A program made the translations under genes and the position numbers. A DNA stretch of 64,000 nucleotides. Origin: Anaerolineaceae bacterium (GTDB lineage: Bacteria; Chloroflexota; Anaerolineae; Anaerolineales; Anaerolineaceae). Below, in pieces: positions 2,272 through 48,243 of this stretch. Location of the stretch: positions 2,897 to 66,896 of the forward strand of contig JAAZOQ010000233.1 in assembly GCA_012797695.1 (NCBI GenBank). The letters run 5' to 3'. The notes below the pieces were generated by a model. The model made no database searches, was not told where the DNA came from, and was given only the letters and a program-made list of their open reading frames with translations. How positions within the stretch are numbered: the first letter of the stretch is position 1; every line of letters begins with the position of its first letter.

Positions 2272-2276
2272 GGAAA

Positions 2277-2717: not shown

Positions 2718-2805
2718 TATTTCGTTTCCCGCTAAGGATCACAACAGAGACTCTGTGAAGGATTCTCCATAAACGAAATCTTGTGTATTATAATAATCAC
2801 CGTTT

Positions 2806-2878
2806 GCCCCCGTAGCGCAATGGACAGAGCACCAGCCTTCTAAGCTGTTGGTTGTGGGTTCGACTCCCACCGGGGGCG
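2806..2878 (+). tRNA. tRNA-Arg (anticodon TCT)
   Basis: Cloverleaf read by hand: acceptor GCCCCCG/CGGGGGC, anticodon loop CTTCTAA, T-arm GTGGG-TTCGACT-CCCAC; CCA not encoded. Confidence 0.9.
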
Positions 2879-2904
2879 CTAGTTTACCTATTTGAAATGA
2901 TCCT

Positions 2905-4977: not shown

Positions 4978-5256
4978 TTTTGCTATTATTTATGCTGAAT
5001 TTATTGCTTTGTTTTTCCAATCCAGTTCATGGAAAACAATTTATCGAAGTGTAAACGCTATGGAATATAAGAAGTGCAACTTCATTCGTTATCAAAATTC
5101 ACTTAAAGAAGCAAAGTAAAATACAGTAATCAAGAATCACACAATTTCGCTGAAAAGCAAGTACTTTACCGATTTAATTTCGGAAGATGATAAAATAAAG
5201 GAAACTCTTTCACTCTTAATTTTTTAATTAATGGTGATTGTCAATAAGGAATTAAA

Positions 5257-7029: not shown

Positions 7030-7547
7030 GCGATGGGGTGAAATGCGGAATCCTTACCATCTCAGATCGCTCTTCAAGTGGAGAACGGCCTGATCTTTCT
7101 GGACCCACGCTGGCAAAGCACGTTTCAAGTTTGGGATGGCAAGTAGTTCTCATGACCATCCTGCCAGACGAGCAAGCCAAGATTTCAGAGGTCCTGAAAG
7201 CCTGGGTAGATATCTCGAAGCTGGATATCATTCTGACCACTGGCGGAACGAGCTGCGCGCCGCGAGATGTCACTCCTGAAGCCACCTTATCTGTGATCGA
7301 CCGCAATATCCCCGGATTGGCAGAAGCAATGCGTGCAAAAAGTATAGCTATCAATGCCCATGCCATGCTTTCAAGACTCATTACCGGAATACGGAGAAAA
7401 ACGCTGATCATCAATTTACCCGGCAGCCCTCAAGCAGCGCTTGAAAACTTGCAAGTGATCGAATCGGTTTTGCCCCACGCACTTTCGCTTCTCCACGAAG
7501 ATCCAAAAGCCGAAAATGAACATCAAGCCAATATGAACCGAGGTTGA
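7026..7547 (+). CDS. mog: molybdopterin adenylyltransferase MogA/MoaB family
   Basis: ILTISDR...TTGGTS.APRDVTPEAT...PGLAEAMR...NLPGSPQAA; ATGA overlap with the upstream stop. Confidence 0.85.
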   Translation: MSDGVKCGILTISDRSSSGERPDLSGPTLAKHVSSLGWQVVLMTILPDEQAKISEVLKAWVDISKLDIILTTGGTSCAPRDVTPEATLSVIDRNIPGLAEAMRAKSIAINAHAMLSRLITGIRRKTLIINLPGSPQAALENLQVIESVLPHALSLLHEDPKAENEHQANMNRG

Positions 7548-7548
7548 T

Positions 7549-8253
7549 TTGCCAAACGCCAGTTTCCACCTTTTCCAGCTTCAAAAAGTAGATGGCCGCC
7601 TTCTGCAGATCGAACAAAGATTTCTGCAAATTGATCTTGAACTTTCGAATAATCCAGAACTGGTAGCCGTTCAAAAGGAAATGGAATACGAGAACCGCGT
7701 TTTAGCCGAAAAAGAAAAAGCTATGGCTGAGCTGGGAAAAAACATCCAGGCCAAACGGATAAAAACTCAGCAGTCAGAATCCAGTCTCTATAGTGGAAAA
7801 AACTCCAACCCCAAAGAATTAGGCGATCTGCAAATAGAAATTCAGTCTCTCAAAAAAAGTATTGCTGTTATTGAAGAGCAGCAATTCACCCTGTTGGGAG
7901 AAATAGATGCCCTCACGCAAAATATAACCAAACTTCAAATTGACCATGACCAGATCACGCAAAAAACGAATACTCTCAACCGCAACTTACTGGTAGAGAA
8001 AGATTCACTTCAGGCAGAAAAAGAGAAACTTTGCAAAGAAAAAACTGTGATTCTCAGCCAAATTTCAGAAGAATGGCTCAAGCAGTATCAGACACTGGCG
8101 AGTACCAAAAATCATATCGCTGTGGCGTTGATTGATGAAAATTGCTGTTCGACCTGTGGGGCAGAAATCACGCCCCGCGATGTACAAAAGGCACATACCG
8201 CGGCAACGCTGGTTTATTGCCCATCCTGTGGACGGATCCTTTACGCTGGCTAA
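7549..8253 (+). CDS. coiled-coil C4 zinc-ribbon protein (COG1579-like)
   Basis: Long heptad-rich region then CCSTCG...CPSCGRILY; TTG start 1 nt after the mog stop. Confidence 0.7.
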   Translation: MPNASFHLFQLQKVDGRLLQIEQRFLQIDLELSNNPELVAVQKEMEYENRVLAEKEKAMAELGKNIQAKRIKTQQSESSLYSGKNSNPKELGDLQIEIQSLKKSIAVIEEQQFTLLGEIDALTQNITKLQIDHDQITQKTNTLNRNLLVEKDSLQAEKEKLCKEKTVILSQISEEWLKQYQTLASTKNHIAVALIDENCCSTCGAEITPRDVQKAHTAATLVYCPSCGRILYAG

Positions 8254-8265
8254 GCTTACCAGGCT

Positions 8266-29785: not shown

Positions 29786-29859
29786 GGGCGGGTAGCTCAG
29801 TTGGTTAGAGCGCCTCTCTTACACAGAGGAGGTCGCAGGTTCGAGTCCTGTCCCGCCCA
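29786..29859 (+). tRNA. tRNA-Val (anticodon TAC)
   Basis: Acceptor GGGCGGG/CCCGCCC, anticodon stem CCTCT/AGAGG with loop CTTACAC, T-loop TTCGAGT. Confidence 0.9.
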
Positions 29860-29875
29860 CTAGTACCTCCTATAG

Positions 29876-29919
29876 TGCCCGCTTTTTTCGTGCAACGAAA
29901 TGAGCGGGTGATCTTTTTT
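29876..29919 (+). terminator. hairpin plus T-tract after tRNA-Val
   Basis: CCCGCT...TTTCG-TGCAA-CGAAA...AGCGGG followed by ATCTTTTTT. Confidence 0.55.
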
Positions 29920-29920
29920 C

Positions 29921-29929
29921 TGATATAAT
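29921..29929 (+). promoter_or_regulatory. extended -10 element upstream of tmRNA
   Basis: TGATATAAT ending 9 nt before the mature tmRNA 5' end. Confidence 0.5.
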
Positions 29930-29938
29930 TACTTTCCC

Positions 29939-30334
29939 GGGGATGAAAGGCTTCGACGGGCGAGGCTGATCCCGGAATGCGTGCCGAGAGGTACCGACCT
30001 CGTTAACTCAGTACAAACCTTTAAGTGCCAATCGCACAAACACCTACGCAGCTCTTCCTCTCGCCGCCTAGCGTCGAAGGATCCTGCGCCTGACACCTCG
30101 GTGTCACGTCTGTCTGCTCCGCTCTCTTACCGGTAGCAGAACAGGCGTCACAAAGTAAGAGTGCCGCAATTCAAGCCGCGAGGATTGCGAAAGAGGGCTT
30201 TCGGGCCTGAGCGGATGGTCAACATCGGGTTCTGTGACTCTTCCTGACGCTGACGACACTCAAGAGGCTCTACGCATGTAGATTTCCGAGGGTTGAATCG
30301 TTCGGACGCGGGTTCAATTCCCGCCATCTCCACC
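29939..30334 (+). ncRNA. ssrA: tmRNA (SsrA), one-piece
   Basis: 5' GGGGATG pairs with 3' CATCTCC-A-CC; T-arm GCGGGTTCAATTCCCGC; internal tag frame ending ...ALPLAA-TAG. Confidence 0.88.
30027..30071 (+). other. tmRNA tag reading frame encoding ANRTNTYAALPLAA then stop
   Basis: GCC resume codon after TTTAAGT, 14 codons, TAG at 30069-30071; the hydrophobic LAA end is typical of proteolysis tags. Confidence 0.7.
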
Positions 30335-33738: not shown

Positions 33739-34104
33739 ATGTCTGGTGGAAAAATTGTTGCCATTATTGCAGCGGTTATCCTGATCCTGTTTGGAGCCTT
33801 AATGATCCTCGGTGGAACCAATTCCGCCGCCGGGGCGATTGGCTGGCTGCCCGTTGGGATCGTCTTTATTGGGATTGGATTAGTCATCATCTATTTTGCG
33901 ACCCGTCAGGCCGCCAAGGCAGCGGATAACAACGTCACCCTGAAAATAGACCTGCCAGGGAATGTATCCATGGATACCTTAAAATGCAAAAGCTGCGGGG
34001 GAACGCTGCAGCCAGAAAATATTCAAATGGTCGCAGGCGCTCCGGTAGTGACCTGCCCTTATTGCCATACGACTTATCAATTAACTGAAGAACCAAAATG
34101 GTAA
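33739..34104 (+). CDS. small membrane protein (2 TM) with a C-terminal zinc ribbon
   Basis: Two hydrophobic helices then CKSCGG...CPYCHTTY; GGAGG SD 4 nt upstream. Confidence 0.6.
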   Translation: MSGGKIVAIIAAVILILFGALMILGGTNSAAGAIGWLPVGIVFIGIGLVIIYFATRQAAKAADNNVTLKIDLPGNVSMDTLKCKSCGGTLQPENIQMVAGAPVVTCPYCHTTYQLTEEPKW

Positions 34105-34131: not shown

Positions 34132-35859
34132 ATGAAACATCTTAGGTACGTGTGTTTATTGCTGATTTTCGTTGTGCTGGCTGGGAGTGTTACCCCTGTT
34201 CATGCGCAAGATTATCGCTTCCAGGTACCAGAAGAATCTGCAGTTGTCACGATCAACACAGACGGTTCAATCTCAATCGATTATTCGATCACTTTTAATA
34301 ATGATTCTGGAGCGCATGCCATCGATGTAGTCGATATCGGCATGCCAAACTCAGATTACGTCTTGAAATCCATCACGGCCTCTGTGGATGGTTATCAGCT
34401 TAGCCGTATTACCAAGTCAGATTACGTCGATCCGGGGATTTCTGTTTATCTGGATAACCGCGAAATTCCCGCCGGGGGAACAGGCACGCTGGCGGTCCAC
34501 GTAGGCACGGTCAACAACGTGATCTACCCGGCGACACAAACGGAATCAGAAAGCTACGCCAGCTTCGTCTTCTCGCCCAACTGGTTCGATAGTCAATACT
34601 GCTATGGAGATACCAACCTGCAGGTTACCCTCCTGCTGCCGGCTGGATTGCAATCCGCTGAAACCCGCTATTACACCCCCGAAGGGGGATGGCCTGGGCC
34701 AGATGAGCCCGAATCCAAAATTATGGAAGACGGGAAAATCTTCTTCACCTGGGTTTCAGATCAAGCCAATGCCTATACTGAATATAAGTTTGGAACCAGC
34801 TTCCCGGCCCGAGTACTGGCAGAAAATGCCATCGTCACTTCCCCTTATACCGGGCCAGGTACTTCTTCCACTTCTTCTTCCGGCTCAGATGGAATCAGCT
34901 TCGATACCAGTGCCATCTGTCCTTTTATCTTTTGTTTGGGCTTCATTGGTTTCTTCATCCTGATCATCTACTCTGCCACGGTCGGAGCCCAAAAACGCAA
35001 GATGCAATATCTGCCTCCAAAAATCTCGATGGAGGGACACGGCATTAAGCGCGGGTTGACGGCAGTAGAAGCAGGGATTTTGATGGAACAGCCTATGGAT
35101 AAGATCATGACCATGATCTTGTTTGGCCTGCTCAAGAAAAATGCTGCGGAAGTAGTAACAAAAGAGCCGCTGGCAGTCAAAGCAGCCGATCCGCTGCCCG
35201 CTGACCTGTATGGTTATGAGACAGATTTTCTCAGTGCCTTTACCTCGACTTCTTCTTCTGAAAAGCGCAAATTGCTGCAAAAGATGATGGTCAACCTCAT
35301 CCGCAGTGTCGGTGAAAAGATGAAGGGCTTCAGCAAGAAAGAGACCGTTGCCTTTTATCAAGATATCATGAAACGTGCCTGGGAACAGGTCGAGCAAGCC
35401 GCTACTCCAGAAGTCAAGGGACAGGTTTACGAAGACGTAATGGATTGGACCATGCTCGACAACGATTACGAGAAACGCACCACCCAGACTTTCAGCGGGC
35501 CAGTATTCATTCCGACTCCAAGCTGGTGGTGGCGTTACGAACCCAGCTATCCACGGACGGTTTCCGCGGCTCCAGTTTCCACCGCAGGGTCCTCCACTTC
35601 GTCAGGGAGCGGTGGACGGGTATCGCTGCCTTCACTCCCGGGTTCCGCGTTTGCCGCCTCTGTCGTGGGCAGTGTTCAGAATTTCTCGACCAACGTATTG
35701 GGGAATCTGACCTCTTTTACCAGCGGTGTAACCAACGTCACCAATCCACCCCCACCTCCCTCCACTTACCGCAGTTCTGGTGGCGGCGGTGGAAGTTCTT
35801 GCGCCTGCGCTTGTGCCTGTGCGGGATGTGCCTGCGCCTGTGCTGGCGGTGGCCGCTAA
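34132..35859 (+). CDS. DUF2207-like single-pass membrane protein with a C-terminal (Cys-Ala)n tail
   Basis: Signal peptide ending VHAQ; N-terminal DYRFQVPEESAVVTINTDGSISIDYSITF and post-TM GLTAVEAGILME...ILFGLLKK resemble DUF2207 signatures; ends GGGGGSSCACACACAGCACACAGGGR. Confidence 0.7.
   Translation: MKHLRYVCLLLIFVVLAGSVTPVHAQDYRFQVPEESAVVTINTDGSISIDYSITFNNDSGAHAIDVVDIGMPNSDYVLKSITASVDGYQLSRITKSDYVDPGISVYLDNREIPAGGTGTLAVHVGTVNNVIYPATQTESESYASFVFSPNWFDSQYCYGDTNLQVTLLLPAGLQSAETRYYTPEGGWPGPDEPESKIMEDGKIFFTWVSDQANAYTEYKFGTSFPARVLAENAIVTSPYTGPGTSSTSSSGSDGISFDTSAICPFIFCLGFIGFFILIIYSATVGAQKRKMQYLPPKISMEGHGIKRGLTAVEAGILMEQPMDKIMTMILFGLLKKNAAEVVTKEPLAVKAADPLPADLYGYETDFLSAFTSTSSSEKRKLLQKMMVNLIRSVGEKMKGFSKKETVAFYQDIMKRAWEQVEQAATPEVKGQVYEDVMDWTMLDNDYEKRTTQTFSGPVFIPTPSWWWRYEPSYPRTVSAAPVSTAGSSTSSGSGGRVSLPSLPGSAFAASVVGSVQNFSTNVLGNLTSFTSGVTNVTNPPPPPSTYRSSGGGGGSSCACACACAGCACACAGGGR
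35800..35844 (+). repeat. imperfect TGY-GCN hexanucleotide repeat encoding CACACACAGCACACA
   Basis: TGC GCC TGC GCT TGT GCC TGT GCG GGA TGT GCC TGC GCC TGT GCT read in the frame of the 34132 gene. Confidence 0.9.
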
Positions 35860-35876: not shown

Positions 35877-37241
35877 ATGTCAGTAAAGAGTTCTTTCGCT
35901 CGATTGGCTCATCGTTCACCAGTGGCAGCATTGCCTGCCACTGGTGTCTACCATTTTCTGCGTGAATCCGACGCCGAAAAAAGCCGCATTCACCTGCGTC
36001 TCGATCCGGATGGCACAGGAACTCTGATCATCAATGCCAATCGCATCTTTCACTTGAACCCCACAGCGGCCCTGATGGCTTATTACTCGCTTGCCCGTAC
36101 TGACGAAACCGCTGCCGTGAAAGCCTTCGAAAAGCAATATCAGGTCAGCCGCAGTCAAGCGCAGCAAGATTTTGCTCAATTCCGTTCTGAACTGGAAGCA
36201 CTGATCTCGCCAGAGACCTGCCCCATTTGCGATCTTGATCTTGAAACAACTGCACCATTCAGCAGTTCACCCACAGCGCCCTATCGAATGGATCTGGCCC
36301 TGACTTATCGCTGCAATAATGCCTGCGCTCATTGTTATAACGCTCGCTCACGAAATTATCCGGAATTAAAAACCGAAGATTGGTACCAGATTCTGGATCG
36401 TCTCTGGGAACTGGGAATTCCCCACATCGTTTTCACGGGCGGGGAACCTACCCTGCGTGATGACCTTCCAGAATTGATTCACCATGCCGAGCAGAATGGG
36501 CAAATCACCGGTCTGAATACCAATGGTCGGCGTATGAAAGACCCGGTTTACGTGCAGCAATTGATCGATGCTGGTCTGGATCACGTCCAGATCACCCTCG
36601 AAAGTCACCGCGCTGAGATTCACGACAAAATGGTCAACGCGACTGGCGCCTGGCAAGAAACTGTCGCCGGGGTCAAAAATGCAGTGAATTCCCGGCTGTA
36701 CGTGATGACCAACACCACGATGCTGAAATGGAATGCTCCTTTTCTGACCGACACGCTGGAATTTTTGGGGCAACTGGGGTTGAAAACCGTAGGGCTGAAT
36801 GCCTTGATTTATTCAGGGCGAGGCAAAACCGTGGGTACCGGCCTCTCCGAGTCAGAACTAATGCCGCTTCTCGACATCGCCAAGCAAGTCACCGAAAAAT
36901 ATAAGCAAAGATTGATCTGGTACACTCCCACAGAGTACTGCCATTTCGATCCGGTGCAAATGCAGTTGGGAGTCAAAGGCTGTACTGCAGCCCTGTATAA
37001 CATGTGCATCGAACCTGATGGCAGCGTGATCCCCTGCCAATCCTATTATCAAAGTCTGGGAAAACTGCTCGAGAATTCTTGGAATTCCATCTGGAACCAC
37101 CCACTCTCACAAAAGTTGCGCAACCGCCAGGGATTGCCTGAAAAATGTCATTCCTGCCTGCTGGTGCAGGAATGCGGCGGCGGCTGCCCGTTAAAATTCG
37201 AGTCTATTTCATTTGAAAGCTCTTCACAGGAGGGTTTATGA
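35877..37241 (+). CDS. radical SAM/SPASM enzyme with an N-terminal PqqD-like RiPP recognition element
   Basis: CNNACAHC (CX3CX2C), FTGGEPTLR, SPASM cysteines C..C.....C...C (CHSCLLVQECGGGC) and upstream GCTAA...PDGSVIPC; N-terminus LIINANRIFHLNPTAALMAYY...SQAQQDFAQF is PqqD-like; start chosen as the first ATG after the upstream stop. Confidence 0.85.
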   Translation: MSVKSSFARLAHRSPVAALPATGVYHFLRESDAEKSRIHLRLDPDGTGTLIINANRIFHLNPTAALMAYYSLARTDETAAVKAFEKQYQVSRSQAQQDFAQFRSELEALISPETCPICDLDLETTAPFSSSPTAPYRMDLALTYRCNNACAHCYNARSRNYPELKTEDWYQILDRLWELGIPHIVFTGGEPTLRDDLPELIHHAEQNGQITGLNTNGRRMKDPVYVQQLIDAGLDHVQITLESHRAEIHDKMVNATGAWQETVAGVKNAVNSRLYVMTNTTMLKWNAPFLTDTLEFLGQLGLKTVGLNALIYSGRGKTVGTGLSESELMPLLDIAKQVTEKYKQRLIWYTPTEYCHFDPVQMQLGVKGCTAALYNMCIEPDGSVIPCQSYYQSLGKLLENSWNSIWNHPLSQKLRNRQGLPEKCHSCLLVQECGGGCPLKFESISFESSSQEGL

Positions 37242-38401
37242 AAGTTCGCATTCGCTCGATTTTCGATAAATTATTCTTCACTCCCAAGCCATTTCCTCCT
37301 GGCAATTACCAAGCCACCCTTACCAACGAAGATGGCTCGCCATTGCGGCTGCATCTGCGGGTTGAGAAAGATGGTTTGGGCTTATTGATCGTCAACGCCT
37401 CCACCATTCTTCACCTCAATCAAACTGCGACCGAGATCGCATATCATCTCATTCAAAATACCCCAGCAGAAGAAGCCATTCAGGAAATGCTCAAACGTTA
37501 TCGTTCGAGCTACACTGAAATCCACGATGACTTCAAGAACATGAAGATCCGCCTGACCTCCCTGCTGAACACCCCCGATCTTGACCCCGAAACTTTTCTG
37601 GATATCGAACGCGTTGACCTGCACGGACAAGAAATCTCTGCTCCCCTGCGCCTGGATTGCGCGTTAACTTACCAGCTTTCCAGCGGGGAAGCCAGCATCT
37701 ATGCCCCAACGGATCGGGTAGCCCGTAACCTCGACAGCGAGGAATGGAAAAAGATTCTGGAAAAAGCCTGGGCAGCTGGAATTCCGCACATCGTTTTTAC
37801 CGGCGGCGAGCCCACGCTGCGGCCAGATCTACCCGAACTGATCGAACATGCAGAACAATTGGGGCAAGTCACCGGGGTAATCAGCGATGGCTTACGCTTC
37901 ACAGAAAAAGATTATCTCGAGTCGCTCTTAAAAGCCGGTCTGGACCACATTCTCTTTATCTTGAACCCGGAAGAAGAACATTCCTGGGAAGCTTTGCGGG
38001 ATGTACTCGGAGAAGACGTCTTTACCACTGTCCATCTCACGGTAACTGCAAACAGACCTCTGGATGCCAGTTCCCTGCTGCCAAAGCTCTCTGAAATGGG
38101 AGTGAATTCACTCTCTCTCAGCACAGATGAACCAGAGATGCAAAAAACACTGGCTGCCATTCAACAAAAGGCCACCGAAAATGGTTTCACGCTGGTCTGG
38201 GATCTGCCAGTACCCTATTCCAGAAACAACCCCATCAGCCTGGAAATGGAATCCGCGGAATCACACAAAGAAGGAGCAGGCCACACCTGGCTCTACGTGG
38301 AACCGGATGGTGAAGTATTACCCGGTCAGGGCATCAACCGGGTGCTCGGCAACTTCCTGACCTCTGAATGGGAAGAAATCTGGCTGAACGCACGGAAATA
38401 A
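37238..38401 (+). CDS. pseudo-radical-SAM paralog (RRE + TIM-barrel core, all Fe-S cysteines lost)
   Basis: Aligns by eye with the upstream gene (GIPHIVFTGGEPTLR.DLPELI.HAEQ.GQ.TG, AGLDH) but has LTYQLSSGEASIY in place of LTYRCNNACAHCY and no SPASM cysteines; ATGA overlap with the upstream stop. Confidence 0.75.
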   Translation: MKVRIRSIFDKLFFTPKPFPPGNYQATLTNEDGSPLRLHLRVEKDGLGLLIVNASTILHLNQTATEIAYHLIQNTPAEEAIQEMLKRYRSSYTEIHDDFKNMKIRLTSLLNTPDLDPETFLDIERVDLHGQEISAPLRLDCALTYQLSSGEASIYAPTDRVARNLDSEEWKKILEKAWAAGIPHIVFTGGEPTLRPDLPELIEHAEQLGQVTGVISDGLRFTEKDYLESLLKAGLDHILFILNPEEEHSWEALRDVLGEDVFTTVHLTVTANRPLDASSLLPKLSEMGVNSLSLSTDEPEMQKTLAAIQQKATENGFTLVWDLPVPYSRNNPISLEMESAESHKEGAGHTWLYVEPDGEVLPGQGINRVLGNFLTSEWEEIWLNARK

Positions 38402-39165
38402 TGGCCTTTTCTCTCGATCAATGGCACGCAAGGTACCTTGAGCAGGCGCAATGGACTGCCCCCTTGCGTGCTTTTCTTTTGCAGCAGCTTTCGTTACCTG
38501 CTCAGGCGCGCGTGCTCGAGACTGGATGCGGTACTGGTGCACTCTTCCCGAATAGGTCACAACTCAGCAATTATGAATGGTACGGCATCGATATCGCACC
38601 CGAGCGTTGTGCCTTTGCTCAAAAAGGAAACCCTGCCGCCATTATTTCTTGTGCAGAGGGCATTCGCTTGCCCTTTGCGAATGCCACGTTTGACCTCACC
38701 TTCTGCCATTATTACCTGCTGTGGATGAATAACGCTGCGCTGCCGGCTCTGCGGGAAATGGCGCGGGTTACCCGGCCAGGGGGTTACGTGATGGCCATGG
38801 CTGAGCCAGACTATGCTGCCCGCATCGACTTCCCGGCAGAAACCGCACAACTTGGGCAACTGCAAAACTCTTCCCTGCAGAAACAAGGAGCCGCACTGGA
38901 TATGGGGCGGCGATTACCCGAACTGTTTCGCCAGGCGGGGATCAGCGAAATTCAGTTTGGACAGAGCGGTTTTCAGCGCGAGGTCACGGGGACGCCGCAA
39001 TGGCTTGATTCTGAATGGAAAGTAATCGCTCAAGACCTGGCAGACACCCTCCCCCCTCAAGAAATTGCTCACCTAGAACGTCTGGATCGCCAACACTGGC
39101 AGAAAGGCAGCCGGGTGTTGCAGATCCCAACTTTCTATGCTTATGGCAAAGTGAAAGCTGAGTGA
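38401..39165 (+). CDS. class I SAM-dependent methyltransferase
   Basis: Motif I VLETGCGTGAL, post-I WYGIDI, RPGGYV; ATG shares a base with the upstream TAA (TAATG). Confidence 0.8.
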   Translation: MAFSLDQWHARYLEQAQWTAPLRAFLLQQLSLPAQARVLETGCGTGALFPNRSQLSNYEWYGIDIAPERCAFAQKGNPAAIISCAEGIRLPFANATFDLTFCHYYLLWMNNAALPALREMARVTRPGGYVMAMAEPDYAARIDFPAETAQLGQLQNSSLQKQGAALDMGRRLPELFRQAGISEIQFGQSGFQREVTGTPQWLDSEWKVIAQDLADTLPPQEIAHLERLDRQHWQKGSRVLQIPTFYAYGKVKAE

Positions 39166-39265: not shown

Positions 39266-39338
39266 GGGGGCGTGGTGTAGCGGCTAACATGCGGCCCTGT
39301 CAAGGCCGAGATCGCGGGTTCGAACCCCGTCGCTCCCG
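39266..39338 (+). tRNA. tRNA-Asp (anticodon GTC)
   Basis: Acceptor GGGGGCG/CGCTCCC, anticodon stem CGGCC/GGCCG with loop CTGTCAA, T-arm GCGGG-TTCGAAC-CCCGT. Confidence 0.9.
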
Positions 39339-39352
39339 CCTGAACAAGAAAA

Positions 39353-39380
39353 TGACTGCCTTCGAGGCAGTTATTTTTTT
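39353..39380 (+). terminator. terminator after tRNA-Asp
   Basis: ACTGCCT-TCG-AGGCAGT followed by TATTTTTTT. Confidence 0.7.
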
Positions 39381-39424
39381 ATCCGGTATAATCACAGCAG
39401 AAATTCATTACAGGAGGAAAATGC

Positions 39425-40462
39425 ATGAAAATCTATATTACTGGCATCAGCGGTTTTCTCAGCATCAACCTGGTGCGCTATTTGCTGGCGCACGGCTATA
39501 CCGACATCAGCGGGATTGACCTGGTTGATTTCGATTACCCAGAACGTGACCAGATCACTTTCTTGAAAGGCGACATCCGCGACCAAGAAGCGCTCAAGAA
39601 AAGCATGGCTGGCGCTGACATCGTGATCCACACTGCGGCCGCACTGCCCCTGTATTCGCCGGAAGACATCTACACCACGGATATCGTTGGCACCCGCAAT
39701 GTACTCGAAGAAGCCGTGGCCGTAGGCGCCAAACGCTTTGTGCACATCTCTTCTACGGCAGTATACGGGGTTCCCGATCATCATCCGCTCTACGAAACTG
39801 ACCCGGTCAGCGGCGTTGGACCTTACGGAGAGGCCAAAGTACAGGCAGAAGAAGTTTGCCGCGAATACCGCAGCCAGGGGCTGACTGTCTCGACCATTCG
39901 GCCCAAATCATTCATTGGGCCAGAACGTCTGGGGGTATTCGCCATCTTCTACGAATGGGCCAGCGAAGGGCGCGGTTTTCCGATGATTGGCAACGGCAAA
40001 AATCGCTACCAGTTTCTGGATGTCGAAGACCTGTGCTCGGCAATTCTGGCCTGCATGACCCTGGAAACCGAAAAAGTCAACGACACCTTCAATGTCGGCG
40101 CGGCAGAATTCACCACCATGAAGGAAGATTATCAGGTCGTGCTGGACGAAGCTGGCTTTGGCAAAAAGATTGTGACCTTTCCGGCCAAACCGGTGATCGC
40201 CGTGCTGAAAGTGCTTGAGTTCCTGAAACTCTCGCCCCTGTATCCGTGGATCTATGAGACCGCAGCTAAAGACTCGTTTGTCTCCATCGAAAAAGCGCAA
40301 AAAGTGCTGGGGTATACGCCGAAATACTCGAACCAGGATGCCATGCTGCGCAATTACCGCTGGTACATTGCCAACAAGGACAAATTCAGAGGTGGCACAG
40401 GGGTCTCGCACCGTCTGCCCTGGAAGCAAAAAGCGCTTAAGCTGGTCAAAATCTTCTTCTAG
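39425..40462 (+). CDS. NAD-dependent epimerase/dehydratase (extended SDR)
   Basis: MKIYITGISGFLS Rossmann motif, YGEAK catalytic pair; AGGAGG 7 nt upstream. Confidence 0.85.
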   Translation: MKIYITGISGFLSINLVRYLLAHGYTDISGIDLVDFDYPERDQITFLKGDIRDQEALKKSMAGADIVIHTAAALPLYSPEDIYTTDIVGTRNVLEEAVAVGAKRFVHISSTAVYGVPDHHPLYETDPVSGVGPYGEAKVQAEEVCREYRSQGLTVSTIRPKSFIGPERLGVFAIFYEWASEGRGFPMIGNGKNRYQFLDVEDLCSAILACMTLETEKVNDTFNVGAAEFTTMKEDYQVVLDEAGFGKKIVTFPAKPVIAVLKVLEFLKLSPLYPWIYETAAKDSFVSIEKAQKVLGYTPKYSNQDAMLRNYRWYIANKDKFRGGTGVSHRLPWKQKALKLVKIFF

Positions 40463-40466
40463 AGAA

Positions 40467-40496
40467 AAACGGGACACTCATTAGAGTGTCCCGTTT
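40467..40496. terminator. bidirectional hairpin between the epimerase gene and glpD
   Basis: AAACGGGACACTC-ATTA-GAGTGTCCCGTTT. Confidence 0.75.
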
Positions 40497-40516
40497 CACT
40501 TTTCATCATTAGAACC

Positions 40517-42199
40517 CTATTTCACGATCACGCCGTGATATTCCTTGAGGTGAGCAATGGTGCGCTCCACCTCGGATTGCACAGTGGCTTTGGACCAGCC
40601 GTTCACTTCGGCAAAGATCGCCGCGAACTCCTCGACCAGCGGACGGGTTACCTCACCCAACCAGGCCAGCGTCGAACGGCGCAGCAAAACATCTTCTACG
40701 TGAACCGGCTTCTCATTCTCTACCAGATAAATCACTTCCCCGCGCTGCCAGTTGGCCTTGCTCTGCAGCGGGGAATCACCCACTCTGGCAATTTCCTTGG
40801 CCACCAGCAACGAGCGCGTGCCGTAGCGGACAAAGAGATCCTGTACCACGGATTCCTTCACGCCAGTCTTGTCGCACACATACTTCACCATCTCAGCGCG
40901 TTCTTTGTCATTGCGCGGAAAATCCTTGCCGCCGCCCACCCCTAATGCCGCCGTGCTGCGAGTGCGCTTCTTGTCGAGCATTTTCAAGATCACGTCGGTG
41001 GTCTGCTCTGAGAAGGCACGGAAACTGGTCCATTTGCCGCCAACCAAACTGAGCACCGGAATATTGCCCAGCTTGTCTTCCTTGATGCTGTGATCACGAG
41101 AAATTTGGCCCGTCGTCTTGGCCCTGGAATACTCCAGCGGGCGTACCCCGGTGAAGCGGAAAACGATGTGCTCTGGCTTGACCGGAATATCCGGGAAAAC
41201 ACGAGACACCAGATTGATGAAATATTGTTCCTCTTCAGGCGTACAGCGCGCTTCATCTGGGTTCTCAATCGGCAAATCAGAAGTCCCGATGATGACCTTA
41301 TCCCAGAAGGGGAAGATCAACACAATACGCCCGTCTTTATTCTCGAAGAAAAACTCTTTATTGCCAATCGCCTGGCGCAACTCAGGGAGATCAAGCACCA
41401 GATGAGAGCCCTTGGTACCACCGATATAACGCTCTTCGATGCCCATCTCGCGGTTGACCGAATCGATCCAGGGGCCAGCAGCGTTGACGATGATCTTTGC
41501 CTGCACCGTAAAAGTTTCGCCGGTGACCTCATCCTTAAGAACCACGTTCTCCCCTTCTTTGCCGACCAGAGAAACGTAATTCAAGGCACGCGCGTGCGGG
41601 CCTTCGGCCTCGGCGTCGCTGATCAAATCCATCGCGTAACGTTCCGGGGAGAGAATCTGACCGTCATAGTAAAGAGCCGTGTACTTGATCTGCGGGTTCA
41701 AACGCGGATACATTTGCAAAGAGCGCTTGCGGCCGTAGAATTCGTGGGTCGGAACGGTCTTCTGCTTATGGGTGAAAGAGTCATACATGATCAACCCAAA
41801 TTTGATCACAAAAGCACCGCGTTCCGCTGGTTTATCGAGCCAGTTGAGGAATTTCAAAGGTGCATTCAGCAGCCCGGACCAGAATTTGAATATCGGAATG
41901 ACCGTCGGCAACGGACGTACCACGTGCGGGGCATTCTCGATCATACGATTGCGCTCCTGAACGGCCTCGCGCACCAGCCGGAACTCCCCATTTTCGAGGT
42001 AGCGGATGCCGCCATGGGCCATGTGAGAAGATGCCGTCGATGCCCCTGAGCAAAAATCACTCCGATCAATCAAAAGAACATTGACACCGTTCAATGCCAG
42101 ATCACGAAACGTTCCAATTCCGTTGATGCCTGCACCTACGACCAAAACGGTTACCTGATTGTTTTTCTTGAGCTGATCCAGTACTTCTGCTCTTTTCAT
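40517..42199 (-). CDS. glpD: FAD-dependent glycerol-3-phosphate dehydrogenase/oxidase
   Basis: VLVVGAGINGIG...SGASTASSHMAHGGIRYLE. Confidence 0.85.
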   Translation of the reverse strand: MKRAEVLDQLKKNNQVTVLVVGAGINGIGTFRDLALNGVNVLLIDRSDFCSGASTASSHMAHGGIRYLENGEFRLVREAVQERNRMIENAPHVVRPLPTVIPIFKFWSGLLNAPLKFLNWLDKPAERGAFVIKFGLIMYDSFTHKQKTVPTHEFYGRKRSLQMYPRLNPQIKYTALYYDGQILSPERYAMDLISDAEAEGPHARALNYVSLVGKEGENVVLKDEVTGETFTVQAKIIVNAAGPWIDSVNREMGIEERYIGGTKGSHLVLDLPELRQAIGNKEFFFENKDGRIVLIFPFWDKVIIGTSDLPIENPDEARCTPEEEQYFINLVSRVFPDIPVKPEHIVFRFTGVRPLEYSRAKTTGQISRDHSIKEDKLGNIPVLSLVGGKWTSFRAFSEQTTDVILKMLDKKRTRSTAALGVGGGKDFPRNDKERAEMVKYVCDKTGVKESVVQDLFVRYGTRSLLVAKEIARVGDSPLQSKANWQRGEVIYLVENEKPVHVEDVLLRRSTLAWLGEVTRPLVEEFAAIFAEVNGWSKATVQSEVERTIAHLKEYHGVIVK

Positions 42200-45892: not shown

Positions 45893-46144
45893 ATGAGCGA
45901 ACCCAATACCCATTATGAAGAATTTCACGTAAACGGTGAGTCGCTGGTCGCCAAGATCAAAGAGATCATCCATGAAGGCAACGTGCGCCGCATCCTCATC
46001 AAGGATGAGAAGGGCAATACCTACATCGAGATCCCGCTGACCGTGGGCTTAGTCGGGGTCGTACTGCTGCCAGTGTGGGCCGCGGTCGGCGCCATTGCCG
46101 CGCTGGCCGCCAATTTCACCATCGGCGTGGAAAAGGCGGATTAA
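45893..46144 (+). CDS. small protein with a C-terminal TM, DUF4342-like
   Basis: GESLVAKIKEIIHEGNVRRILIKDEKGNTYIEIPLTVG then a hydrophobic tail; GGAGGAAG SD upstream of the ATG at 45893. Confidence 0.55.
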   Translation: MSEPNTHYEEFHVNGESLVAKIKEIIHEGNVRRILIKDEKGNTYIEIPLTVGLVGVVLLPVWAAVGAIAALAANFTIGVEKAD

Positions 46145-46177
46145 GCCGCGCACTTCCCGCCCCCGCACGGCAACTCG

Positions 46178-46186
46178 TGGTAAAAT
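46178..46186 (+). promoter_or_regulatory. extended -10 element upstream of tRNA-Arg(CCG)
   Basis: TGGTAAAAT ending 12 nt before the tRNA. Confidence 0.45.
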
Positions 46187-46198
46187 ACACCTCGTTGC

Positions 46199-46270
46199 GT
46201 CCCTGTAGCGCAATGGATAGCGTGCCGGCCTCCGAAGCCGTCGGTGTGGGTTCGAATCCCACCAGGGACA
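46199..46270 (+). tRNA. tRNA-Arg (anticodon CCG)
   Basis: Acceptor GTCCCTG/CAGGGAC, anticodon loop CTCCGAA, T-arm GTGGG-TTCGAAT-CCCAC. Confidence 0.88.
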
Positions 46271-46273
46271 CTC

Positions 46274-46300
46274 AAGAGATGACTCAGGTCATCTCTTTTT
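46274..46300 (+). terminator. terminator after tRNA-Arg(CCG)
   Basis: AAGAGATGAC-TCAG-GTCATCTCTT-TTT. Confidence 0.75.
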
Positions 46301-46523
46301 CGTTAACTTCATGGTTTCGATAACTGCGGGAACCCTCAAAAAACGAGGGCGGGCGAATCAAAATGAATCCTTTTTGGAAAGAGAAATAAACTTCGCAGGG
46401 AAAACGATCCGGGCATGTTTATTGTTATAAATCATTTGTTCTATTTTATTAAATAAGGATTTTACTTTACTTTTTTCACACCCGCATATTAAAAAGGTAA
46501 ACGTGAGAAGAACTATTTTATAC

Positions 46524-46544
46524 TTAAGTTACTGATGTTACGCA
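46524..46544. repeat. left target-site duplication (46524-46531) plus left terminal IR (46532-46544)
   Basis: TTAAGTTA + CTGATGTTACGCA read directly. Confidence 0.8.
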
Positions 46545-47640
46545 CAAGTGAAAGAAAAACGGATAAGATTTGGGAATGGACAAAGAATACTTAGAACTGT
46601 ACACAGACTATTTAATCAGCACGTTTGGGTATGCCACAGCCACCGGTCTTTCACGGCTGGTGGAGGGACAAGTCAGTCATGACCAGATTACTCGTTTTCT
46701 CTCCGAAGAGGAATACACCTCGAAAGACTTGTGGCTGGAAGTCAAAGGGACAGTGCGAAAAGTGGAACGGGAAGAGGGAGTGTTGATATTTGATGACACG
46801 ATTCAAGAAAAACCCTACACAGACGAAAACGAGGTGATGTGCTGGCATTATGATCACAGTAAAGGCCGAGCGGTGCAGGGCTTCAACCTGCTCAACTGTC
46901 TGTACCATGTAGGAGACATCTCTATTCCGGTGGCCTTTGAGCTGATCAAAAAGCCGGTAGAGTATTGCGATCTGAAAACACACCAGCACAAACGAGCCAG
47001 TTTGGTCACAAAAAATGAACTGATGCGAGCCATGCTGGATGTCTGTGTGCAAAACAAGCTGTTATTTCACTTTGTTTTGTTCGATACCTGGTTCTCTTCC
47101 AAAGAGAACATGTGCCATATCCACGAAACACTCAAAAAAGAGTTTGTCTGCGCGCTCAAAAGCAATCGTTTGGTTGCAGTGAGCGAAGAAGATCATCAAG
47201 CCAAACGCTTTACGCCGATTGAAGAATTGCCCTGGCGGGAAGAGACAGTATTCACAGGTTGGCTCAAAGACGTGCCTTTTCCTGTGTGCTTTGTGCGCCA
47301 AGTTTTCACCAATAATGATGGCAGCACGGGAATTCTCTATCTGACCTGCAGTGACACAACCCTAACGCGTGGACTTATTCTGTCAACCTATCAGAAACGA
47401 TGGCAGGTAGAAGTCTTCCATAAATCGCTCAAACAAAATGCTGCCCTGGGAAAAGCCCCTGTTCGCCGGGTGGTAACACAAAATAATCATGTCTTTGCTG
47501 TTTTGTATGCTACGTTCAAATTAGAGTGTTTGAAAATAAAACAACATCTGAGCCATTTTGCCTTACGTGCTCATTTGTATCTCAAAGCGACTCGCATCGC
47601 CTTTGACGAGCTTCAAGCTCTCAAGGCTGCGTAACATCAG
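46532..47640 (+). mobile_element. intact IS4-family insertion sequence (1109 bp)
   Basis: Perfect 13-bp terminal inverted repeats CTGATGTTACGCA / TGCGTAACATCAG, immediately flanked by an 8-bp direct repeat TTAAGTTA; single DDE transposase gene. Confidence 0.8.
46576..47634 (+). CDS. IS4-family DDE transposase
   Basis: IFDDT and VLFDTWF acidic motifs; YQKRWQVEVFHKSLK fits the Y-(2)-R-(3)-E-(6)-K IS4 signature; the stop codon lies inside the right IR. Confidence 0.85.
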   Translation: MDKEYLELYTDYLISTFGYATATGLSRLVEGQVSHDQITRFLSEEEYTSKDLWLEVKGTVRKVEREEGVLIFDDTIQEKPYTDENEVMCWHYDHSKGRAVQGFNLLNCLYHVGDISIPVAFELIKKPVEYCDLKTHQHKRASLVTKNELMRAMLDVCVQNKLLFHFVLFDTWFSSKENMCHIHETLKKEFVCALKSNRLVAVSEEDHQAKRFTPIEELPWREETVFTGWLKDVPFPVCFVRQVFTNNDGSTGILYLTCSDTTLTRGLILSTYQKRWQVEVFHKSLKQNAALGKAPVRRVVTQNNHVFAVLYATFKLECLKIKQHLSHFALRAHLYLKATRIAFDELQALKAA

Positions 47641-47648
47641 TTAAGTTA
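47628..47648. repeat. right terminal IR (47628-47640) plus right target-site duplication (47641-47648)
   Basis: TGCGTAACATCAG + TTAAGTTA read directly. Confidence 0.8.
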
Positions 47649-47718
47649 AACTATTCGCAAATGATCACTCCGGAAACAGATCTGTATAATAAAAAAGGAA
47701 TCAACCATCAGAGGACTA

Positions 47719-48243
47719 ATGATACTTTTTAGAAGAATAAAGTCAAAAGATATGTCTACATCACTTCAAGATTACTATAAAATCGAATACCAACAAGTGG
47801 TTAGTAGAATATATGCATTCGAAACAATTCGACTCCAGAGTGGAATCTTTTTTGGAACAGCTAATATTACAGCACTTGGCTTTGCATTTGCGCGAAAAGA
47901 ATCAGGTATTTTTTTTATTGCGGCATTGATACTATCAATATATCTTTTTTACGAAGTCAGAGCACGAAAAGCTTCACAAATTCTATACTTTCGAGGGTTG
48001 CAATTACAAAGGTTCTTATCTAACAATGATCAGGAAGCATTTTTAGAGATCAGCAGAAGCGCACAAGCGGAAGAAGCAAAAAAAATATTATCCTTTGATG
48101 ACATAAAAATTAGGAAAAAATTGCTGATAAATTCTAAAACTTACAGAACTGGTATTTTTTTTATCATTCCAATTCTTGTGATTTCACTAGAAGTTATTGC
48201 TGGAATCTTATACTTAACCATTGCTTGTTGGCCTTTATATTAA
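47719..48243 (+). CDS. hypothetical membrane protein, AT-rich
   Basis: 174 aa with three hydrophobic segments; no motif recognised. Confidence 0.5.
   Translation: MILFRRIKSKDMSTSLQDYYKIEYQQVVSRIYAFETIRLQSGIFFGTANITALGFAFARKESGIFFIAALILSIYLFYEVRARKASQILYFRGLQLQRFLSNNDQEAFLEISRSAQAEEAKKILSFDDIKIRKKLLINSKTYRTGIFFIIPILVISLEVIAGILYLTIACWPLY

Follow-up and report, generated by a model that had tools for sequence, protein, structure and literature searches.

A paralog of a PqqD-radical SAM-SPASM enzyme devoid of all the cluster-binding cysteines was found to be fixed across the whole bacterial class to which the Anaerolineaceae bacterium studied here belongs. In the window analyzed (the whole stretch of 64,000 nucleotides from this organism), it is encoded directly after its active counterpart and is referred to below as pseudo-rSAM. 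Judging from its motifs, this protein is unable to bind a [4Fe-4S] cluster, and hence to perform radical SAM chemistry; judging from its pattern of substitutions, it is retained by selection and is not a decaying duplicate. The loss of the catalytic residues in combination with purifying selection is what characterizes a functional pseudo-enzyme. On balance, we infer that pseudo-rSAM acts as a non-catalytic binding or scaffold subunit, a role which would have been acquired by subfunctionalization. The labels it carries at present ("radical SAM protein" and "organic radical activating enzyme") are wrong in its case. Radical SAM/SPASM maturases are one of the principal sources of modified peptides. 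As to pseudo-enzymes, those related to kinases and proteases have been studied thoroughly, those related to radical SAM proteins scarcely at all. The pseudo-rSAM family provides an unusually clean case, as it is class-wide, is under a constraint equal to that acting on its active partner, and has an identifiable candidate substrate.

The gene is part of a five-gene cassette occurring in the Anaerolineae and their relatives, which has apparently not been described so far. In the window, the genes of the cassette and the tRNA gene at its downstream end are arranged in the following order:

33739–34104, + strand: small membrane protein (121 aa) with an N-terminal TM segment and a C-terminal Zn-ribbon, an ORF with weak Zn-ribbon matches; first gene of the cassette
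34132–35859, + strand: membrane protein (575 aa), the probable substrate, with orthologs 41–76% identical in at least 69 loci
35877–37241, + strand: active PqqD-radical SAM-SPASM enzyme (454 aa), with CX3CX2C at nucleotides 36312–36335 and the full set of SPASM cysteines
37238–38401, + strand: pseudo-rSAM (387 aa), the cluster-less paralog, with an RRE/PqqD-like domain followed by a partial TIM barrel and by what is left of the SPASM domain, shortened and without cysteines
38401–39165, + strand: class I SAM-dependent methyltransferase (254 aa; Pfam Methyltransf_11/25); last gene of the cassette
39266–39340, + strand: tRNA-Asp (Rfam, ARAGORN)

The cassette is conserved in all the 80 genome loci wherever the contig allows it to be seen, in the distant member L084, and in 26 of the 27 judgeable metagenome loci carrying an Anaerolineae-type active enzyme. 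An ortholog of the 121-aa protein is located directly upstream of the tail-bearing membrane protein in nearly all the loci, including the archaeal-type L087 and L095. The active enzyme matches the Pfam families Radical_SAM (91 bits), SPASM (39.8 bits), and PqqD (26 bits); it reaches no NCBIfam cut-off, the best match being NirJ2 (139 bits vs. a cut-off of 500). The cassette includes no protease or exporter. The epimerase gene at 39425–40462 was rejected as a further member, since it is absent from all the 80 related loci and the tRNA gene intervenes. Scanning the cassette for promoters and terminators yielded fewer matches than shuffled sequences and was uninformative.

The sequence-only reading of this region had taken the two adjacent genes to be paralogs, which was borne out by BLASTP: pseudo-rSAM and the product of 35877–37241 are 33% identical over 383 aa (E = 1e-65). 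The conserved block to which that reading had drawn attention, GIPHIVFTGGEPTLR.DLPELI.HAEQ.GQ.TG, is indeed present in both proteins, and the DNA encoding it agrees at 80 of some 116 aligned columns (about 70%). Chance similarity is excluded by the E-value and by the conservation in the relatives. Independent gene callers gave the same product for the ORF 37238–38401 in three public contigs. The parts of pseudo-rSAM discussed below are the following:

37295–37573, + strand: RRE/PqqD-like domain (approximately residues 20–112), based on PF05402 and the AF2 model
37658–37660, + strand: codon of Cys141 (LRLDCALTY, barrel strand beta-1), the sole conserved Cys of the pseudo-rSAM family
37673–37699, + strand: loop QLSSGEASI, which in the alignment takes the place of the cluster-binding RCNNACAHC found in the active enzyme
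37796–37813, + strand: FTGGEP, the retained "GGE" motif (columns F187–P192, invariant in alignments A1 and A2)

The CX3CX2C motif has gone, as had been claimed, except that the string QLSSGEAS given as its replacement was one residue off: it is LSSGEASI which aligns with CNNACAHC (residues 146–153 of the active enzyme). The model confidence is low around this former cluster loop (residues 147–156). Neither CX3CX2C nor any equivalent three-Cys motif typical of the radical SAM superfamily is present, and because the motif is absent, pseudo-rSAM can be said to have a radical SAM fold without being a radical SAM enzyme. The SPASM cysteines have all been lost too, in agreement with the earlier claim: the active enzyme contains 13 Cys, including the full SPASM set, vs. 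only C141 in pseudo-rSAM, where no Cys occurs after this residue. Cysteines which might serve as alternative ligands of a cluster, named in the sequence-only reading as what would speak against a pseudo-enzyme, were not found, C141 being the only conserved Cys column in the 78 orthologs. It is a Cys in 78/78 of them, 42 of which contain exactly one Cys, and its position is occupied by Leu in the active paralog.

The cluster cysteines are missing in all the 78 intact full-length orthologs of pseudo-rSAM, which were collected from the loci of 80 species-level genomes. Omega (dN/dS), obtained for five pairs of close orthologs, ranged from 0.047 to 0.084 in the case of pseudo-rSAM vs. 0.046 to 0.098 in that of the active enzyme, and 83 columns are invariant among 24 pseudo-rSAM sequences showing 52–72% identity. 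The loss of all the catalytic ligands and the truncation of the C-terminal SPASM part are what might be expected of a decaying duplicate or pseudogene without any function, but this explanation, to which we attach practically no credit, is refuted by the 78 intact orthologs, the more than 120 protein clusters making up the family, the omega values of 0.05–0.08, and the 83 invariant columns. Nor did the relatives show any of the inactivating changes that the earlier reading had set down as a sign of decay. Four flagged "internal stops" turned out to be ORF-extension artefacts or long-read assembly errors and were rejected, none of them being a real lesion in the pseudo gene; likewise, the apparent "active enzyme without CX3CX2C" in L143 is due to an assembly gap (XX in the translation).

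The pseudo-rSAM sequences form a single clade in the NJ trees, with a bootstrap support of 97% (16 taxa) or 96% (42 taxa), and the branching order within this clade parallels that seen among the active enzymes. The tandem duplication proposed in the sequence-only reading is thus correct insofar as pseudo-rSAM is a duplicate of the active enzyme, but this duplication is ancient and not recent. Gene conversion and recent duplication were also rejected as the origin of the near-identical block, in which the identity amounts to 0.665 within genomes vs. 0.656 between genomes; the similarity of this block can be attributed to the conservation of motifs in both families. Pseudo-rSAM stems from one old duplication of the neighboring PqqD-rSAM-SPASM maturase, and the two copies have diverged together ever since under equally strong purifying selection.

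The ATGA overlap between the active and the pseudo gene (37238–37241), which is preceded by AGGAGGG, is real, but it was found in only 7 of about 73 loci; in most of these loci, the two genes are separated by a spacer of 13–46 nt, and in 10 of them by inserts of 0.9–2.3 kb. Since it is not conserved among the loci, the overlap carries little weight as an argument for the stoichiometric co-production which had been read into it. The junction between the pseudo gene and the methyltransferase gene is tighter than that between the active and the pseudo gene. The start of the methyltransferase gene overlaps the stop of the pseudo gene by 1 nt in the window (TAATG, 38399–38403); the methyltransferase gene follows the pseudo gene in 74 loci, and in 58 of these the junction is overlapping or shorter than 18 nt. 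In the rearranged loci L098, L103, and L106, the pseudo gene stays beside the methyltransferase gene and not beside the active rSAM gene.

The 575-aa membrane protein consists of a signal peptide, a beta-sandwich ectodomain, a single TM helix, a helical cytoplasmic domain, a Gly/Ser/Pro-rich linker, and a Cys-Ala tail. Searches of Pfam and NCBIfam gave no match for it, even with the threshold relaxed to E ≤ 10. In the AF2 model (pLDDT 70), the N-domain resembles the N-domains of M1-aminopeptidases and ribophorin/OST1. As a lead only, the protein may resemble the DUF2207/TIGR04222-type membrane proteins with Gly/Cys-rich tails. The part of it which matters most here is the following:

35800–35856, + strand: C-terminal tail CACACACAGCACACAGGGR (19 aa, including 7 Cys), with the stop codon directly after it; putative core peptide of the active rSAM enzyme

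This tail is invariant in 28/28 diverse orthologs and, among 75 genome loci, in about 73, while across 74 loci all the synonymous codons are used at each of its positions. Selection on the tail at the DNA level, or as a repeat or an RNA element, was rejected, every synonymous codon being used. Among the metagenome tails, 61 of 85 show the exact form, and the remainder deviate from it by a single CA unit or a single residue; the tail is also present in L092 and L095, and in L087 with S instead of G. The tail in the Bathyarchaeota genome CP070659 contains a TGA codon in frame, which may encode selenocysteine. The invariance of its 19 residues makes the candidate substrate stand out from the rest of the protein, which is only 41–76% identical. 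Because the peptide is invariant while every synonymous codon varies, we are fairly confident that the tail is the substrate of the cassette. As in RiPP-like systems, a conserved core sequence adjacent to the enzyme and inherited together with it was found in the bacterial loci and in the archaeal-type contigs. Thioether cross-links on the tail would be a guess based on precedents, in which little confidence can be placed.

The PF04055 (Radical_SAM) match in pseudo-rSAM covers residues 158–240 and scores 53.1 bits vs. a cut-off of 29.5; all the 24 family members tested match this model. In the case of PF05402 (PqqD), the score in the window (17.4 bits) is under the cut-off of 23.4, and all the 24 aligned members match at E ≤ 0.01, with a best value of 5e-9. 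The AF2 model of the N-terminus shows four strands (residues 22–60) followed by three helices (residues 62–111). The best structural matches obtained with Foldseek were SuiB (E = 2e-10), SkfB (TM 0.58), and PqqE, the SuiB and SkfB alignments covering both the RRE and the barrel (more than 400 columns), and PqqE was also the best PDB match in terms of sequence (E = 1.8e-15). The RRE-like N-terminus which had been described as intact has thus probably been kept as an RRE/PqqD domain, peptide binding by which is a prediction. PF13186 (SPASM) has no match in the pseudo-rSAM of the window and only weak ones (E ≥ 0.002) in 7 of 24 relatives; some 60 residues are missing from the C-terminal end of this domain, of which only the beta-hairpin YVEPDGxVLPGQG is left.

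The job of the cassette would be to modify the invariant cytoplasmic tail CACACACAGCACACAGGGR. Pseudo-rSAM would most likely use its RRE and its barrel to bind the membrane protein at its cytoplasmic C-terminal end (the linker, which contains TNPxP, and/or the tail), and would then either hold it for the active rSAM enzyme and the methyltransferase or form a bridge to them. The ancestral single enzyme would have combined catalysis with binding to the membrane protein, and after the duplication, catalysis would have been assigned to one copy and binding to the other. The scaffolding or substrate-holding role suggested in the sequence-only reading, which had missed both the cassette and the likely substrate, is plausible and agrees with the comparisons between loci. 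If this scaffold model is true, pseudo-rSAM illustrates the division of a maturase into two subunits, one for catalysis and one for binding. An RRE is present in either paralog, however, so that simply outsourcing the RRE does not, as far as the domain composition goes, explain the pseudo copy. In addition, the strict invariance of FTGGEP, C141, E251, D255, E259, D260, and H266 would seem to exceed the needs of a passive scaffold and could reflect ligand binding or a new catalytic site.

The GGE motif of radical SAM enzymes contacts the methionine moiety of SAM, and we take FTGGEP to be the retained form of this motif on the basis of what is generally known about radical SAM structures. It is conceivable, although rather doubtful, that the barrel now serves another purpose, either catalyzing a reaction which needs no cluster or accommodating a small ligand (SAM, SAH, methionine, 5'-dA, or a metal), in which case pseudo-rSAM might perform a second step on the tail by means of the retained GGE pocket and its family-specific invariant residues. 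D217-G218 and LDH are invariant in the pseudo family along with FTGGEP and C141, as are the pseudo-specific residues E251, D255, E259, D260, H266, S293, and S295, which sit on or just past the barrel strands in the predicted structure; omega is as low as in the active enzyme, and the pseudo gene is tightly coupled with that of a SAM-dependent methyltransferase. Apart from the Radical_SAM and PqqD matches, however, no known non-radical enzyme motif was detected in pseudo-rSAM. The SAM affinity of radical SAM enzymes depends largely on coordination by the cluster, which is absent here, and the independent cluster-less derivatives found elsewhere do not have the pseudo-specific residues. If the barrel does have a new activity, pseudo-rSAM will prove to be a new enzyme.

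The same architecture (an N-terminal PqqD/RRE, a partial TIM barrel with GGE, and a C-terminal auxiliary domain) is found in SuiB (streptide), SkfB and AlbA (sactipeptides), and PqqE with PqqD. The active paralog carries all the cluster motifs of these maturases, and as in the RRE maturase systems, the cassette genes adjoin a gene for a product with a conserved Cys-rich end. Unlike these maturases, pseudo-rSAM lacks CX3CX2C and every auxiliary-cluster cysteine; the RRE maturases act on a short secreted precursor, whereas here the C-terminal end of a membrane protein of 575 aa is the presumed substrate, and the cassette is distributed class-wide like a housekeeping trait, whereas natural-product clusters are patchy. 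Paralogous rSAM/SPASM genes lying side by side next to a substrate gene are also found in the pairs HxsB/HxsC, ScmE/ScmF, TrnC/TrnD, and RumMC1/RumMC2, and the active paralog shows sub-threshold matches to HxsC, ScmE, and ScmF. To our knowledge, both members of each of these pairs keep their cluster cysteines, whereas one member of the present pair has none, the loss being fixed family-wide. Discrete RRE proteins (PqqD, MftB) and the inactive E1-like partners of the YcaO cyclodehydratases present the peptide to the enzyme without having any catalytic residues, which is the concept proposed here for pseudo-rSAM; the latter differs from them in that it is a full-length copy of an enzyme, the active form of which keeps its own RRE. 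The Bacteroidales precedent mentioned in the sequence-only reading was not confirmed, and the only curated precedent found by name was NCBIfam TIGR04347, "pseudo-SAM/SPASM protein" (pseudo_SAM_Halo), which groups radical SAM/SPASM look-alikes regarded, to go by this name, as pseudo-enzymes; no curated family for pseudo-rSAM was found. TIGR04347, which we assume to be restricted to Halobacteria and to have no known function, ranks among the better sub-threshold matches of the proteins encoded by the present system, but does not include pseudo-rSAM, the score of which (40.3 bits) is lower than those of the active-type proteins of this system (104–130 bits) and far below the cut-off of 525. Literature searches on pseudo-radical-SAM proteins and pseudoenzymes, rSAM-SPASM proteins in Anaerolineae, SPASM/PqqD proteins in Asgard, and the tail sequence yielded nothing relevant.

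Related systems consisting of a tail protein and rSAM proteins were encountered in further Chloroflexi as well as on archaeal contigs, and the closest named relatives of the archaeal-type contigs are Asgard, Bathyarchaeota, and Korarchaeota MAGs. The pseudo copy is absent from the related systems in L092, L096, L148, and L090 and from 6 of the 15 loci that are not of the Anaerolineae type, and since related systems exist without it, it can be regarded as accessory rather than core. Separate cluster-less derivatives are present in L087 (nested in the archaeal-type active clade, 77%), L095/P0276, L089/L093, and L094/P0316, each of which is encoded directly after a membrane-protein gene. The cluster has been lost independently at least twice and probably four or five times, the exact number being uncertain with these long-branched NJ trees. 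In L089, L093, and L094, the membrane protein is tail-less and the adjoining rSAM homolog is also without CX3CX2C; these cases come from three short contigs and about two lineages, and their genomes may carry an active paralog elsewhere. The joint loss of the tail and the motif indicates that the cluster chemistry is tied to the tail, and that the pair formed by the membrane protein and the rSAM-fold protein persists without this chemistry. These comparisons suggest that the rSAM-fold proteins of the tail-protein system have a cluster-independent role. The wider system stands out in that its probable target is a large membrane protein and not a secreted peptide, and in that the association with the membrane protein has outlasted several losses of the radical cluster.

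It might accordingly be asked whether pseudo-rSAM is not a maturation factor but a lasting partner of the membrane protein in the cytoplasm, either as a subunit or as a chaperone, its link with the rSAM enzyme being only historical; it would then remain attached to the mature protein in its working complex, or else shield the thiol-rich tail or control access to it. The cluster-less homologs which are still translationally coupled to tail-less membrane proteins (L089, L093, and L094) and the cluster-less copies located directly after the tail-protein gene in L087, L095, L129, and L147 are consistent with this idea, but such cases for comparison are scarce and come from short contigs, and the pseudo gene of the Anaerolineae lies between those of the active rSAM and the methyltransferase and travels with the latter, which fits maturation better; we consider such a role improbable. 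In a broader and similarly speculative reading, which is unlikely to hold in full, the rSAM-fold proteins would not act just transiently as maturases but would belong, as stable subunits on the cytoplasmic side, to a widespread membrane complex of the Chloroflexota and, as it appears, of Asgard, Bathyarchaeia, and Korarchaeota archaea. The active copy would turn the Cys-Ala tail into a novel structure attached to the protein (for instance, a poly-thioether ladder, or a cofactor site binding a metal or a cluster), and the pseudo copy of the Anaerolineae would read, bind, or further process this structure via C141 and its own invariant Asp/Glu/His residues. If this were true, the recurrent loss of the radical cluster would be a general evolutionary route leading from an enzyme to a structural subunit.

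The pseudo-rSAM family is also represented in the cultured strains Levilinea saccharolytica KIBI-1 and Bellilinea caldifistulae GOMI-1, and its occurrence in cultured hosts makes it accessible to experimental testing.

In the ORF listing of the window, five genes lie close together on the + strand, from 33.7 to 39.2 kb; they are referred to here as the cassette.

Genes of the cassette (window position, strand, product and source)
33739-34104, + strand: small membrane protein with a TM segment and a Zn-ribbon, 121 aa (ORF)
34132-35859, + strand: membrane protein with a Cys-Ala tail, 575 aa (ORF)
35877-37241, + strand: active PqqD-radical SAM-SPASM enzyme, 454 aa (ORF and profiles)
37238-38401, + strand: pseudo-rSAM, 387 aa (ORF)
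38401-39165, + strand: methyltransferase, 254 aa (ORF)

The same boundaries were set for the pseudo-rSAM by gene callers on three public contigs encoding the identical protein. Profile searches show the 454-aa protein to be a complete enzyme of the PqqD-radical SAM-SPASM type (PF04055, 91 bits; PF13186, 39.8 bits; PF05402, 26 bits); CNNACAHC occupies its residues 146-153, and it has 13 cysteines overall. When the window proteins were used in tblastn searches, all five genes were found in the same order in 80 loci wherever the contig allows. The epimerase was rejected as a member of the cassette, since it is never present downstream in these 80 loci; a tRNA-Asp gene lies between the two in the window. 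Genes for an NAD-dependent epimerase and for a protein of the glycerol-3-phosphate-dehydrogenase type occur near the rSAM both in the window (39425-42199) and in the Hodarchaeota-type contig L090 (1526-3498), which is probably a coincidence because the 80 Anaerolineae loci do not share this neighborhood. ARAGORN also reports a 94-nt tRNA-Ser(cga) at 39304-39397 on the - strand, opposite the tRNA-Asp and overlapping it; since Rfam gave no such report, this call is probably false.

The pseudo-rSAM can be aligned with the active enzyme along its whole length (33% identity across 383 residues, E 1e-65). LSSGEASI stands where the active enzyme has CNNACAHC, the SPASM cysteines are substituted, the last ~60 residues of the SPASM domain are missing, and C141 is the sole cysteine left. 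The sequence-only reading, which had described a cysteine-less paralog next to the active enzyme, is therefore confirmed at 37238-38401, and the core of its interpretation holds; the block it had noted as near-identical in the two genes is also present, with a DNA identity of ~70%. In the AF2 model (pLDDT 71.9, pTM 0.68), an N-terminal strand-helix domain precedes a partial barrel of six strands, after which comes a short C-terminal hairpin. Confidence is low in the linker between the domains, in the former cluster loop (147-156) and at residues 322-349. The top PDB structure matches are SuiB (E 2e-10), SkfB (TM 0.58) and PqqE, which is also the top PDB match by sequence. The PqqD profile gives a sub-threshold score with the window protein (17.4 bits vs. 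a cut-off of 23.4) and matches 24/24 members of the family at E<=0.01. The pseudo-rSAM has the fold and, with a probable N-terminal RRE, the architecture of the RRE-bearing rSAM/SPASM maturases but lacks the cluster motifs defining them: it is a homolog of these maturases, outside the enzyme class itself.

More than 120 full-length protein clusters (376-411 aa, 53-96% identity to the pseudo-rSAM) were obtained in the protein search, all from Anaerolineae/Chloroflexi where the source is named. Scanning one genome per species yielded relatives in several hundred genomes, the count of 540 being an upper bound which includes matches to the active paralog; the best 80 loci are all from Anaerolineae, including the isolates Levilinea saccharolytica KIBI-1 and Bellilinea caldifistulae GOMI-1. 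The CX3CX2C and SPASM cysteines are absent from all 24 members aligned (52-72% identical), and 83 columns are invariant, including LRLDCALTY, FTGGEP, GLDH, PVPYS and YVEPDG..LPGQG. C141 is the only cysteine conserved across 78 orthologs, 42 of which have no other. The dN/dS values (Nei-Gojobori, five closest ortholog pairs) are 0.047-0.084 for the pseudo-rSAM, 0.046-0.098 for the active enzyme and 0.046-0.074 for the membrane protein. Alternative cluster-ligating cysteines and inactivating changes in relatives, both named in the sequence-only reading as grounds for refutation, are excluded by these data: the pseudo-rSAM belongs to a conserved family and is not a decaying copy. The near-identical block, from which the sequence-only reading deduced a tandem duplication, was rejected as a sign of recent duplication or gene conversion, since the paralogs are no more similar in it within the same genome (0.665) than between different genomes (0.656). 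In NJ trees, all pseudo copies of this type form one clade (support 97% with 16 taxa, 96% with 42), the branching order of which mirrors that of the active enzymes, the group consisting of L098, L103, L106 and L128 being basal to the Anaerolineae-type group in both trees. This indicates a single old duplication, after which the two copies co-diverged.

The 575-aa membrane protein matched no Pfam or NCBIfam family in profile searches. In its model, a signal peptide and a beta-sandwich ectodomain are followed by a single TM helix and a helical domain on the cytoplasmic side, and this predicted topology places the C-terminus, and hence the tail, in the cytoplasm. The tail (CACACACAGCACACAGGGR, the last 19 residues, 35800-35856) contains seven cysteines and is identical in 28/28 diverse orthologs and in ~73/75 genome loci, whereas the rest of the protein is merely 41-76% identical among orthologs. 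Since all the synonymous codons are in use at each tail position in the genome loci, the constraint acts on the peptide. The tail is preceded by a (T/F)NPxP element, which is conserved, and by a Gly-rich linker. This pattern of an invariant Cys-rich C-terminus adjoining an RRE-bearing rSAM/SPASM maturase makes the tail a quite probable substrate of the enzyme. Sub-threshold NCBIfam matches of the active enzyme include the sactipeptide maturases SkfB, AlbA and StsB, and thioether formation would be our guess, by analogy, as to the modification. Two tandem genes for the membrane protein, each with the Cys-Ala tail, occur in L038, L049, L072, L087, L109, L131, L158, L164 and L167. In the complete Bathyarchaeota genome CP070659.1 (L091, 5917-5999), where the tail protein is followed by the rSAM, an in-frame TGA lies inside the tail (...RCVCA-TGA-ASCACACACVSCACACAGGGAR-stop) and the rSAM start codon 2 nt further on; this TGA could be a selenocysteine codon, a read-through site or a nonsense mutation.

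About 35 full-length cluster-less representatives were found in a profile search of 1.8 billion representatives; a distant one, P0265, has the same cassette and the same tail. CX3CX2C is present in 119/121 active-type relatives, whose MAG names include Hodarchaeota, Ranarchaeia, Promethearchaeota, Heimdallarchaeaceae, Helarchaeota, Korarchaeota, Bathyarchaeota and Chloroflexi. A metagenome scan with the tail protein added 80 loci, and the exact 19-mer was found in 61/85 metagenome tails, the others deviating by a single residue or CA unit. A pseudo copy was found in 26/27 judgeable metagenome loci whose active enzyme is of the Anaerolineae type vs. 9/15 of those where it is of another type, which makes the tail-protein/rSAM pair the core and the pseudo copy an old accessory that became fixed in the Anaerolineae-type lineage. 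Of the cassette genes, L090 carries only the rSAM and, after it, the methyltransferase. The Chloroflexi contig L092 has the Zn-ribbon protein, a tail protein with the same 19 residues, the rSAM and the methyltransferase without the pseudo copy; TM1506-like and TPR proteins (7457-9047), which may be analogous accessory factors, fill the slot between the last two. In one Anaerolineales lineage, CDP-alcohol phosphatidyltransferase, lipid A-type acyltransferase and PAP2 phosphatase genes, all of lipid metabolism, separate the active rSAM from the pseudo-rSAM (L037, 5802-7942; similarly L032, L041, L049, L053, L065, L067, L069 and L070), with an additional minus-strand gene ahead of the methyltransferase. 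In L129 (8621-12900) and L147 (4124-8100), the Zn-ribbon and tail protein genes are directly followed by the pseudo copy instead of the active enzyme, then by opposite-strand genes (one truncated and membrane-protein-like, without the tail, the other a long active rSAM of 541-549 aa) and by the methyltransferase.

CX3CX2C is also missing in homologs outside the main pseudo clade (L087, L095, L089, L093 and L094). In L087 (GC 0.33, closest to Asgard among named relatives), P0431 (441 aa) retains just six C-terminal cysteines, directly follows the tail protein gene, lies 4 kb downstream of an active paralog (465 aa) and nests within the archaeal-type active clade at 77% in the NJ tree. P0302 of L095 directly follows a protein with a canonical tail. 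In L089, L093 and L094 (the last two archaeal by their neighboring genes), a membrane-protein homolog without the Cys tail (22% identity, E 1e-23) overlaps an rSAM homolog without CX3CX2C, which has kept the SPASM cysteines in L093. These cases are few, come from short contigs and have long branches in the trees; the losses counted as independent number at least two and are probably four or five. The joint disappearance of tail and radical cluster supports the enzyme-substrate relation, while the persistent coupling of an rSAM-fold protein to the membrane protein without radical chemistry suggests a second, cluster-independent role. The value of the finding is raised by this context, which the sequence-only reading had not seen: a five-gene cassette kept class-wide with an invariant candidate substrate tail, archaeal-type contigs bearing related systems, and repeated transitions from enzyme to pseudo-enzyme.

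We infer the function of the pseudo-rSAM from the best-fitting model, subfunctionalisation. A single ancestral enzyme would have had two tasks, binding the membrane protein on its cytoplasmic side and modifying the tail. Once duplicated, one copy would have retained catalysis; the other would have retained binding or scaffolding and shed both the clusters and the last part of the SPASM domain. The ATGA overlap with the active rSAM gene, previously taken as a sign of stoichiometric co-production, is real and is preceded by AGGAGGG, but the coupling is not conserved: these genes overlap in merely ~12 of ~73 loci, with ATGA in 7. The pseudo-rSAM and methyltransferase genes overlap or lie <18 nt apart in 58/74 loci, and they move together in the rearranged loci L098, L103 and L106, so that the pseudo copy may serve to bring the tail to the methyltransferase no less than to the rSAM. 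FTGGEP and C141 are strictly invariant, as is a pseudo-specific set of acidic residues and His on the barrel strands, which argues against a purely passive role; the main alternative, a ligand-binding or new catalytic function, nevertheless seems rather unlikely to us as compared with retained binding or scaffolding.

No NCBIfam model reached its cut-off with any of the five cassette proteins or their archaeal-type counterparts. The precedent of pseudo-rSAM proteins in Bacteroidales, invoked in the sequence-only reading, was not upheld: TIGR04347 is the only curated "pseudo-SAM/SPASM" family found, and the pseudo-rSAM scores 40 bits vs. a cut-off of 525. This family is repeatedly among the top sub-threshold matches of active-type enzymes (104-130 bits; proteins of L087, L092 and L093) and might be one more cluster-less lineage derived from that clade of enzymes. 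The papers that could be searched contain no mention of the tail, the cassette or a comparable radical SAM pseudo-enzyme. Relatives of the pseudo-rSAM are publicly labeled "radical SAM protein", "organic radical activating enzyme" or "PqqD family peptide modification chaperone".

Elsewhere in the window, a tRNA-Val gene (29786-29860) is followed by a tmRNA gene (29939-30334; tag peptide AQTPTQLFLSPPSVEGSCA), and the short ORFs within 29786-30334 were discarded as spurious. The G+C content is lower (0.39-0.44 vs. ~0.50-0.55 elsewhere) at 2001-6000 and 46001-48000, the latter following a tRNA-Arg gene (46199-46271); both stretches may be acquired islands.
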